Origin: a virus
Lineage: Duplodnaviria > Heunggongvirae > Uroviricota > Caudoviricetes
IMG/VR virus record: IMGVR_UViG_2609460218_000015
Coordinates: 1 to 20,780 of that record
Reading direction: 5' to 3' (one strand)
DNA length: 20,780 nt
Part shown: piece after piece, positions 3,001 through 6,000 of the stretch
How the letters are laid out: each line of letters opens with the position of its first letter
Numbering within the stretch: position 1 is the stretch's first letter
Program-made: the position numbers

Positions 3001-6000
3001 GCTGGCAGTACAACGTTGCTACCCGGTCCGTATGTTTCGCGCCACTGCTTGATTGTCAGCAGTCGCCCTTTGGTAATAGTGATCATGCCGCGTTTCCTTC
3101 TTTCTTATTAACAATCACACCGTCATATATTTCATTAAGGTGCCCTCTCAACTCCATGCGCCTTAATGCAGATAACATGTAATCGCATTCAACCTGCTTA
3201 TTCCCAGTAAATGGCTTATCGTCAGGATTACCCCAACAGCAATTACCCCTGGGCCATCCATGTACTTTCCGTACTCTTCCGTTAACAACGTGAAGTAATC
3301 CCCAGCCGGGAGGTAAATCCTCAACTGAAATAATTTCCGGCTCACTAATAAAGAATCGCCAGTCGCCCATGCCAAGTGAGGGATTTTTACGGAAACGCTT
3401 TTTTCTATCTGCCAACAAGTCAGCACGAGAACACTTCGCCTCTATCAGGCATGATGCTGAATTTCTGAATCCCATAGCATCTGGCTGTTCTCCGGTACTG
3501 GTTACAGCAACAAAGCGGTCATGAAAGCAAACCTTGAACCCGTTGCGCTTAAGGAACTTGTACGCAATCTGACAGAGTTCGTGGTGTGTTAACGCCATAT
3601 CACTCTCCTTTGATGCGAATGCCTGTTGCAATGCTGTTTATGATGCTGTCAGTGCATNGGGTAGAAAGCTGGGCATCTCCAGCAATTTTCATGACCTCAA
3701 CATCTGCATATCGAATACCGAGGTGTATCAGACCGGCTATGCCTGACTTAAGCCGAGCATTTTCCATAAATAGAACTTTTGCCCGCTGTTTTTCTGCTTC
3801 AAGCTCAACGCGCAGCTTCCCTACCGTTAGCGCAATATCCTCGTTCTCCTGATCGCGGCTTTTGATGTATTGCAGGTTTCTTTCCCGTTCATCCAGCAGT
3901 GCCAGCACGGTTTCTGGTCCGGTCAGAAATTTGAAGGCGTTGAGCGCATCAATATCCACACCGTAATCTTTAAGTTCCTGTTCACTTAACAAGTCATCAT
4001 CAGCTGGCAACATTAACAGGCGTTCCATTGCTGGAATTGCACGTTCCGCCACCTCACGCAGTGCCTGGTAATTAATTTCGCTCACTGGTTGCCTCCTTTG
4101 CGAAGCTGGGCAGCAAAGTCAACTAACCACTCAGTCATTTCAACCTTCCCTACCAGGTCTGAACCAGGGTACATACAGCAATCACTCTGCGCCGCTTTGA
4201 AATCCTTATACTCATATTCTTGGGCCACCAGATTTTTTGCAGCTTCTATAGCAGCATCCACCCCCTGCGCCCGGACTTCAGCCAGGAAAGCATCAGTGGT
4301 TGGCGTTTCAGGTATCTGTCTCCTCATCCGTTCTATTGCATGATTGAACCCGAAGTCTTCCGCGAGAGATACGTCATCCATATTGTCATTGTCATCTTCA
4401 ATATCCCGTGATTCTGGAATTGCAGACTTTATTCCCGCATTCTCCGCTGCCAGCGCCGTGAAATTACCCTCCAGCTCTGCAATGCGCTGTTTTGCGGCAT
4501 CAAGTTCAATCGATAATTTTTCCAACTGCTCTTTATGCTTCTTGTATTCCTGATATGCGTGCCAGGACTGACCTTTGCGCACACTATCAGTAATATCAGT
4601 AATCTGTTCTGGTGTTAGAGTGGTCAGTGGCTGTGCTGGGAAAATCAGCACTTTCCCGGAATCCCAATCAAAACCAGCGTGAATTGACTGAACTTCAACT
4701 GAGGGTGTTGAACCAATGCTGCCAGGCGAATGAACAACGATCGTTACATCCATATCGCGACGATGGCTGTGGTTGTTGGACAAAATACGATTCACCAACT
4801 CAGAAAATTTGGAAAATTTCATGCTGATTCCCCTTTCTCTGCTCTCTGTCGGAACATCACTATCATCAGGTCGCCTTTTGTCGCTATCCTGGCTGTTGTA
4901 CCTGGTTCAATGCGGCTAAGCTCAAATGCGTCATAGAACGCTTCTAATGCCTTCTGGCGTTCATCCTGCTTACGGCGTTTATTCCATTTTTTCAGGAACA
5001 ACAGCGACAGCCACCGTCCGCTGCAGAACACGATGTAAAAATAACCAAGGAGCGCCAGGCCGACATTCAGGGCCGTTTCTATGGTTAGTTGTGAGTCAGT
5101 TGCCATTTCTTACCTGTTTAAGTAACTGGTTGAACATAACACTTAGGGGATTGCTGTATCCAAACGGCAGATTGTTTACGCAGTACAGAATCATTTTGTT
5201 TTTTTCTCCAGTTCGTACTATTAACCCATTCCACAATAACCGTGATAATTCATTACTGATAGAAGTTGCGCTTCTTCCAAGTGCGAGGGATATATCTTCT
5301 CTACTGCAATCTGGATTTTCCTGGATATACTCGATAACGGTCATGTGGTCCCTTTTACTTAATATCTGTTTCGGATTGCATGCCATGAGTATTCATTTCG
5401 TTAATAATTTCATCCAGAAGGATTTCAAGCCCTTCTCGACCCATATCTGAAAGAATGAAACCTTTATCAGGGGAAGTAGTGAGCATTTTCTGATAAAGAA
5501 ACAGCGCTCTTCCCATTCCTTCAGCTTCGCCGTATTTTTGAATTAAATTCCATTCAATATACTGTTGTAAGGCAAATCGAATGGGGCCGGGATATATCGT
5601 CATAAACCCATACATCCCGTTATATACCACGGCGTGTTCAGTTGTTCCGTGTTCATTCAGGATATCAATTGTGCCGTTCTTGTCTTCTTCTTCGTTGATG
5701 AATGTCGTCACATACAACCATCGCCACTGAGCAACCTTCATCTCAACCGGAAGTTTACCCAGTAATCCTGCTTCGTCGGCTTGCGCCAGACACTGAAGGA
5801 TACGTAAACCTCGCACATTAGGAGTATCGAATTCTCCGGCATCCAGACGACGTATAGCGTCGTGATAATCAATCGTCATACTGCCAGTTCGTATACCATT
5901 GGCTGTTGCTTCAGCCTGGAATTCATCGTATTGCATGATATTTATTCCTCATCTTCATCTTCATCTGCTGGTGCAATAACGTCATATCCTGCCTTTTCTG

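Follow-up and report, generated by a model that had tools for sequence, protein, structure and literature searches.

What does a small gene in the early-left region of a lambdoid prophage encode when its product, a very common protein, has no name or family model? The question is raised by a stretch of 20,780 nucleotides (nt), hereafter the window, which covers positions 1-20,780 of the IMG/VR virus record IMGVR_UViG_2609460218_000015 and is a lambdoid, Shiga toxin (Stx)-phage-like Escherichia coli prophage. The gene lies on the minus strand at 3083-3598, and an earlier note, made from the sequence of the window, had proposed that it encodes a stand-alone PD-(D/E)xK nuclease-like early protein. 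The reading frame, its homologues, a fold model, a Foldseek match to the structure 3DNX and an hhalign comparison with MmcB together point to a stand-alone PD-(D/E)xK nuclease of an unnamed sister family of MmcB-like proteins. A small nuclease of this kind in a lambdoid accessory region is no surprise to the specialist; what is new is an unmodelled, mobile-element-borne branch beside the MmcB-like nucleases.

The gene is intact, translationally coupled and real. Its open reading frame (ORF) extends from an ATG at 3598-3596 to a TGA at 3085-3083 and encodes 171 amino acids (aa), from MALTHHELCQ to KKEGNAA, as against the approximately 172 first estimated, and the exact protein is found on at least 1,000 contigs. 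An alternative, longer TTG start is located at 3631; the MALTH start is preferred because it is shared by the 90% cluster of 1,363 members and by every close homologue. Immediately upstream on the same strand, an Ea22-like gene (3600-4085; PF13935, E 4.2e-31) ends in a TGA at 3602-3600, 1 nt ahead of the target ATG. The Shine-Dalgarno sequence AAGGAG, read from the sequence at 3610-3605 on the minus strand, falls within the last codons of this upstream gene and is separated from the ATG by a spacer of 6 nt, in agreement with the tight coupling to the Ea22-like gene claimed earlier. At the other end, the target TGA and the ATG of the downstream gene overlap as ATGA at 3086-3083. The latter gene (2514-3086, minus strand, 190 aa) had no match in a Pfam scan and matches only PHROGs of unknown function. 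In all, the stretch between about 5936 and 2092 holds eight co-directional genes with overlapping ends or gaps of at most 5 nt. The upstream Ea22-like gene and the one that precedes it (3600-4085 and 4082-4822, minus strand) form a tandem, overlapping pair with PF13935, and an N at 3639 gives an X in the translation of the former.

The D...ExK arrangement named in the earlier note is present, with GEQPD supplying D40 (codon 3481-3479) and LIEAK supplying E53 (3442-3440) and K55 (3436-3434), at a distance of 13 residues from D40 to E53. Further predicted active-site codons are those of D27 (3520-3518) and E37 (3490-3488), and the predicted active site from D27 to K55 occupies 3434-3520 on the minus strand, being delineated by invariant or nearly invariant columns, by the Hjc and MmcB alignments and by strands beta2 and beta3 of the structural model. 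In an alignment of 24 relatives with 59-96% identity, D27, E37, D40, E53, K55, R58, D60, D64, K67, R70, R81, W122, E137, R146 and R147 are all invariant. A deeper alignment of 55 sequences, 34-88% identical to the target and with a mean column identity of 35%, retains D40, D60, G78, R81 and E137 as invariant positions, while H5, E37, P39, E53, K55, S57, D64, K67, R70, W99, G100, R146 and R147 are conserved in 90% or more of the sequences. D40, E53 and K55 align with D42, E55 and K57 of Hjc, the catalytic residues of that enzyme, and with D39, E53 and K55 of MmcB. It is this conservation, with the three residues invariant or nearly so even in distant homologues, rather than the mere presence of the motif, that argues for more than a chance resemblance. 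The ExK motif is followed by a family signature, C56-S-R-A-D-L-L-A-D-R-K-K-R-F-R70 (SRxDFLADxKKxFR; 3389-3433, minus strand), marked out by conserved columns and comprising helix alpha2 and a basic loop; within it S57, D60, D64, K67 and R70 reach 90% conservation or more in the deep alignment, and R58 is invariant in the close one. Its counterpart in MmcB is ECKSSRADFQSD. A third conserved element is the C-terminal helix (residues 134-150; 3149-3199, minus strand), which bears the invariant E137 and an A-L-R-R-M motif that includes the nearly invariant R146 and R147.

A structural model places these residues on a recognizable core. AlphaFold2, given the 55-sequence alignment, produced a model with a predicted local distance difference test (pLDDT) score of 93.7 and a predicted template modelling score (pTM) of 0.87, which superseded a first model built on the shallow 24-sequence alignment (pLDDT 73). 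Its elements follow the order alpha1-beta1-beta2-beta3-alpha2-beta4, succeeded by a hairpin and a long C-terminal helix; helices at residues 5-18 and 58-64 and strands at 23-26, 41-45, 48-54 and 80-85 form the alpha-beta-beta-beta-alpha-beta core. As is characteristic of the PD-(D/E)xK superfamily (Pfam clan CL0236), this core carries the D on beta2 and the (D/E)-x-K on beta3. A Foldseek search against the PDB yielded a single strong match, 3DNX (E 4.5e-6, probability 1.0, template modelling (TM) scores of 0.57/0.65), with 25% identity across 154 columns. Below it, matches with E under about 0.1 were nearly all PD-(D/E)xK nucleases, such as the AF1548 protein, the R2 endonuclease domain, Bax1, Hjc and XisH, and the lower ranks contained restriction enzymes, Can2 and viral cap-snatching endonucleases; a search with the earlier pLDDT-73 model agreed with this. 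In the viral structure library BFVD the matches were to phage proteins, several of which bear the name MmcB-like. We consider it very probable that the target has the PD-(D/E)xK nuclease fold. The similarity to this fold in profile or structure searches, on which the earlier note had let its proposal stand or fall, was found with 3DNX, Hjc and MmcB.

To which family within this superfamily does the protein belong? On its own, the target had no match in Pfam or NCBIfam even at E<=10 and lies below the curated thresholds of both the MmcB (PF06319/NCBIfam) and Hjc (PF01870) models, phmmer against PDB sequences gave nothing useful, and the PHROGs that it matches are families of unknown function together with, weakly, one "DNA repair protein" PHROG. 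PADLOC-DB 2.0 also had no match to the target, a null result that is uninformative on anti-defence families as the library holds defence-system models only; the two neighbours on each side of the target gave only marginal coiled-coil matches, and these for one Ea22-like gene. A profile of the deep alignment did reach PDB sequences, matching 3DNX at E 1.6e-4, Sulfolobus Hjc at E 0.06 and Hjc chains overall at E 0.06-0.3. 3DNX is SPO1766 of Ruegeria pomeroyi, which in its full length bears the label "MmcB family DNA repair protein" (PF06319). When the family was aligned by hhalign with 19 MmcB proteins, the local match covered 94 columns (98% probability, E 3e-13) and the global match 140 columns (98.1%), the latter including the C-terminal ARRL motif, with SALRRM of the target paired with HAARRL of MmcB in the last helix. 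Pfam scans of the 55 individual sequences gave weak matches to Hjc in 34 (best E 1.3e-4), to MmcB-like PF06319 in 13 (best E 2.9e-4) and to YraN in two. Because the homology to MmcB runs from end to end, with the E-C-K-S-S-R-A-D-F and A-A-R-R-L signatures both represented, yet no curated model is reached, we regard the target as belonging to an unnamed sister family of full-length homologues of the MmcB-like nucleases, which is more distantly related to archaeal Hjc than to MmcB. This kinship suggests an activity to test and three residues to mutate, and a new family model could be founded on it.

The family is large. A HMMER search over 1.84 billion representatives recovered 3,316 clusters at E<=1e-3 and 2,423 at E<=1e-10, mostly stand-alone proteins of 150-190 aa, the family size of about 3,300 clusters being counted at 50% identity; a word-index search gave 308 matches to the target. 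Source labels for its members are "hypothetical", one automatic "YraN family" and one "structural protein spo1766 structure", and our literature search found no paper on the family. Domain fusions in longer members, considered as a possible guide to function, were uninformative: a TniB-like ATPase in one member and a DUF551 tail in another may both be gene-call artefacts.

MmcB itself has been reported as an SOS-induced PD-(D/E)xK endonuclease needed for tolerance of mitomycin C, a crosslinking agent (review PMC9578287), and is described as chromosomal, SOS-regulated and mostly alpha-proteobacterial (PMC9578287, PMC3424549). Like the target, MmcB proteins (PF06319, formerly DUF1052; COG5321; 3DNX) are stand-alone, of about 150-170 aa, and have the same order of secondary-structure elements throughout. 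Both families share an acidic residue at the end of beta1 (D27 in the target, E28 in MmcB), the aspartate of beta2 (D40 and D39, respectively), E-x-K followed by S-R-x-D-F-x-x-D, a conserved Arg on beta4 and a C-terminal helix with A-x-R-R-L/M. Nevertheless, their identity is only about 25%, and the target alone has an inserted, conserved basic loop (K-K-x-F-R-x-x-P-x-x-G-M-G), the G-E-x-P-D motif (MmcB lacks E37 and P39), a W-G-L-L strand and the invariant E137. Their settings differ too: whereas MmcB is a chromosomal, SOS-regulated repair gene, the target family is carried by phages, phage-plasmids and conjugative plasmids, the instances at hand being a prophage early operon, phage-plasmids and plasmid leading regions.

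Two other families of small nucleases invite comparison. Hjc (PF01870; 1HH1, 1GEF, 2EO0) likewise has a minimal PD-(D/E)xK core, and its P-D and E-x-K align residue-for-residue with those of the target. However, the similarity is sub-threshold (E 0.06 in sequence; E 0.06-0.4 and TM about 0.3 in Foldseek), and the target has an additional beta-hairpin and C-terminal helix. The YraN/UPF0102 proteins (PF02021), predicted Hjc-like endonucleases, are also small, stand-alone members of the superfamily, and a plasmid homologue of the target described below bears the UniRef label 'YraN family protein'. That label appears to be automatic, and the target has no PF02021 match; YraN, moreover, is encoded by a conserved gene of the chromosome, not of mobile elements.

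The earlier note had also drawn attention to a Cys/Trp-rich C-terminal region. The stretch, GWPRGNCCWGNPDD (residues 114-127; 3218-3259, minus strand), does exist. However, close homologues have A, T, G, S or N in place of C120 and C121 and keep only W122 of these three, the segment is gappy and unconserved in the 55-sequence alignment, and DSSP assigns neither helix nor strand to most of it in the model. It is best read from the alignments as a variable loop. A zinc or Cys-cluster metal site here was considered and rejected, as the Cys residues are not conserved even in close relatives, and neither the 24- nor the 55-sequence alignment contains a conserved Cys/His pattern of metal ligands in this region.

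Where, then, is the family found? Among complete E. coli genomes, 910 of 5,426 (approximately 17%) have the target gene, on chromosomes and plasmids and including Stx-converting prophages; the plasmid copies inspected lie on non-mobilisable IncY plasmids of about 97 kb, rich in phage genes, which we read as P1-like phage-plasmids. At 80 near-identical prophage loci from IMG/VR, the upstream gene is usually an Ea22-like variant, and the downstream gene matches only part of the 190-aa neighbour seen in the window. The gene downstream also differs between E. coli prophages, a Klebsiella phage, an IncY phage-plasmid, IncF plasmids and a Vibrio phage, and a conserved partner, either as a toxin-inhibitor pair or as a two-gene module with the ATGA-overlapping gene, was rejected on account of this variation. 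A prophage of E. coli S4 (NZ_CP107140.1; 6011-6657 of locus L001), otherwise 99.6% identical over the Ea22-like genes, has only frameshifted, truncated pseudogene fragments at the target position; a prophage can thus be maintained without the gene.

Beyond E. coli, tblastn detected relatives in 642 phage records. In three genera of Ackermannviridae the gene is immediately upstream of that for DNA primase, and in Vibrio phage MAR10 it comes after those for DNA polymerase, a primase-helicase and an SNF2 helicase; in Vibrio phage H8, which is temperate, a few genes separate it from the integrase, and the depositors of that sequence had already noted the likeness to the SPO1766 structure. A scan of 80 distant viral contigs, covering 150 neighbour proteins no shorter than 150 aa and no more than about 1.4 kb away, recovered DUF1376, HNH, RusA (four), NinG (three), DNA methylases, DnaB and SSB, a neighbourhood of the replication and nin-like type. 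Relatives also occur in 864 plasmid records, of which 411 are conjugative. In the IncF leading region a 66%-identical homologue with all catalytic residues intact (6977-7495 of locus L091, NZ_AP027603.1; 5977-6495 of locus L096, NZ_CP148484.1) has its start abutting the psiA stop, in the gene order ssb, DUF905, parB-like, psiB, psiA, homologue, hok. This junction of psiA and the homologue is seen in 205 of about 4,570 psiA-bearing PLSDB plasmids. A distant family member is present on the Pseudomonas aeruginosa IncP-2 megaplasmid NZ_OR283034.1 (5986-6459 of locus L092), with two orphan DNA methyltransferases, a DUF6685 protein, a phospholipase-D-like protein and an integrase as neighbours. DUF6685 recurs on a Xanthomonas plasmid (locus L095), about 4.4 kb from the family member, on the opposite strand and beyond two insertion-sequence transposases.

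With moderate confidence, we favour the reading that the protein is a metal-dependent, structure-specific DNA endonuclease that aids newly entered mobile-element DNA. The product would be a small, stand-alone, divalent-metal-dependent PD-(D/E)xK endonuclease carried by mobile elements. The gene is situated in the leftward early-left array between the cI-like repressor (7426-8160) and the excisionase and integrase genes (integrase at 1-1314), and because of this position in a coupled array of early genes the protein would be made soon after infection or induction. A pL-type promoter may transcribe the array, by analogy with the gene order of lambda; a scan of 1300-8500 for consensus promoters and terminators gave counts not above shuffle expectation. 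As is standard for the superfamily, D27, D40 and E53 would bind Mg2+ and K55 would position the attacking water, with R58, K67, R70, R81, K111, R146 and R147 as candidate residues for gripping the DNA backbone. The enzyme is expected to recognize the structure of DNA, namely branched, stalled-fork, flapped or damaged forms, rather than its sequence, because it has no separate sequence-recognition domain, no conserved partner and no fusion, and is most closely related to a nuclease of crosslink repair and to a junction resolvase. It may serve to trim or repair such structures in the DNA of the element itself, either newly entered or under replication, a role consistent with the association of the family with replication, recombination and entry modules in phages, viral contigs and IncF plasmids. 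If that role is limited to tidying replication or repair intermediates, this would be another ordinary accessory phage nuclease.

Several points weigh against this reading. A search for biochemical data on the substrate of MmcB found none, the choice of the element's own DNA as target is drawn from context only, and the protein reaches no curated model in Pfam, NCBIfam or PADLOC. The gene is accessory, as its frequencies in E. coli genomes and psiA-bearing plasmids and its decay in at least one close prophage attest, and is therefore not essential for replication. Furthermore, the window already has a NinG/Rap-like nuclease, and RusA or NinG account for seven of the 150 neighbours at the 80 distant loci.

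The alternative that we rate highest, although unlikely, is that phages and conjugative plasmids share an 'entry toolkit' nuclease, an anti-defence or establishment factor made within minutes of the arrival of the DNA. It would be expressed from the early-left operon of a prophage or from the ssb-psiB-psiA unit driven by single-strand promoters, and might, for example, cut structures that the host makes on the incoming DNA, or a nucleic-acid component of an immune system. Were this true, it would represent a new class of enzymatic counter-defence on the scaffold of an MmcB-like repair nuclease. In another form of this reading, likewise unlikely, an early nuclease of incoming mobile DNA destroys or disarms the nucleic-acid part of host immunity or of the host response to foreign ssDNA or dsDNA; it might act on R-loops or D-loops, on guide or signal nucleic acids or on joints made by RecA. 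The catalytically intact homologue abutting psiA favours such a role, as single-stranded promoters drive an early, transient expression of genes of the ssb-parB-psiB-psiA unit when F enters the recipient (PMC9849209). Leading regions are enriched in anti-defence genes, with a third of their commonest families uncharacterised and about 10% bearing phage annotations, and some families occur in phages as well (PMC11541004). The megaplasmid member among orphan DNA methyltransferases and the phage copies in early operons are in keeping with this. Because the family recurs in the first-expressed parts of mobile elements, it is a reasonable candidate for an establishment or anti-defence function, and its wide distribution and recurrence in the psiB-psiA unit raise the interest of the gene. 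On the other hand, the support is positional only, the leading-region papers and their accessible supplements do not mention the family, and the contexts in virulent phages suggest replication rather than anti-defence islands. A modelling paper on exo-xis mentions no nuclease.

An offensive nuclease, degrading the host chromosome for takeover or nucleotide scavenging or excluding competing phages and plasmids by degrading their DNA, is distinctly unlikely. Many small PD-(D/E)xK proteins are indeed DNA-degrading effectors, the Foldseek list includes restriction enzymes and Can2, the mosaic, moron-rich early-left location has variable neighbours, and the accessory distribution would suit such an effector. 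But stable carriage in about 17% of E. coli genomes and on low-copy plasmids is hard to square with an unrestrained DNase, and there is neither a conserved partner gene as candidate inhibitor or immunity protein nor an evident self-protecting DNA modification in the window. Moreover, the closest relative, MmcB, is a repair protein.

We regard as quite improbable a dedicated Holliday-junction resolvase, that is a bacterial-virus counterpart of Hjc which resolves recombination and replication branches before packaging. The weak Pfam matches to Hjc in the deep alignment, the correspondence of the catalytic residues, the several Hjc structures in the Foldseek list and the location of the gene in the replication module of virulent phages all speak for it. 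Nevertheless, Hjc is a far weaker match than MmcB both in sequence (E 0.06 versus 1.6e-4) and in Foldseek (E 0.06-0.4 versus 4.5e-6), and the gene is dispensable in many related prophages. The Rap/NinG and RusA proteins, which are also small phage nucleases for branched DNA, share neighbourhoods with the family in some phages but have unrelated folds, HNH-like in NinG and its own in RusA. In the window, the gene at 14351-15370 (plus strand, 339 aa) matches the 'HNH endonuclease' PHROG phrog_96 over its full length and has a NinG/Rap-like C-terminal Cys/His region. Because of this protein the prophage already has a candidate branch-cutting nuclease, and the target would be an addition to NinG rather than its replacement. 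A simple role as the resolvase of the phage is thus unlikely. Finally, a catalytically dead DNA-binding or regulatory protein of this fold, or a non-functional gene, is very improbable: inactive PD-(D/E)xK homologues exist (PMC3424549) and some prophage copies are truncated, but the acidic and Lys residues are conserved over about 3,300 clusters, and the frame is intact in a protein that recurs unchanged on so many contigs.

The remainder of the window agrees with its lambdoid character, containing Rha-type, replication, DnaB and Q-like genes. The first gene to the left of the repressor encodes a 167-aa helix-turn-helix protein matching a CII-like PHROG, not an N-like antiterminator. Among the early-left ORFs at 2092-7322 on the minus strand scanned with Pfam and PHROGs there was no match to an Exo/Bet/Gam, RecET or Erf-type recombinase, coverage by both libraries being incomplete for the ORFs at 1370-1606, 1615-1761, 1765-2043, 3600-4085, 4082-4822 and 4819-5106. 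Downstream of the Q-like gene are three tRNAs, Met-CAT, Arg-TCG and Arg-TCT (16242-16491, plus strand), an arrangement typical of Stx phages. Between these and a 617-aa ORF at 17470-19323, which we take to encode a NanS-p-type esterase, the interval 16492-17469 has no ORF of 70 aa or more except one of 87 aa, and the prophage looks like an stx-less relative of Stx phages. The segment 15625-16134, between the Q-like gene and the tRNAs, contains short ORFs with ambiguous bases; one fragment (...KHPCEKPAEMLQQIINASSRPGDQV...) resembles by eye a DNA-methyltransferase motif and may be part of a decayed or poorly sequenced methylase gene.

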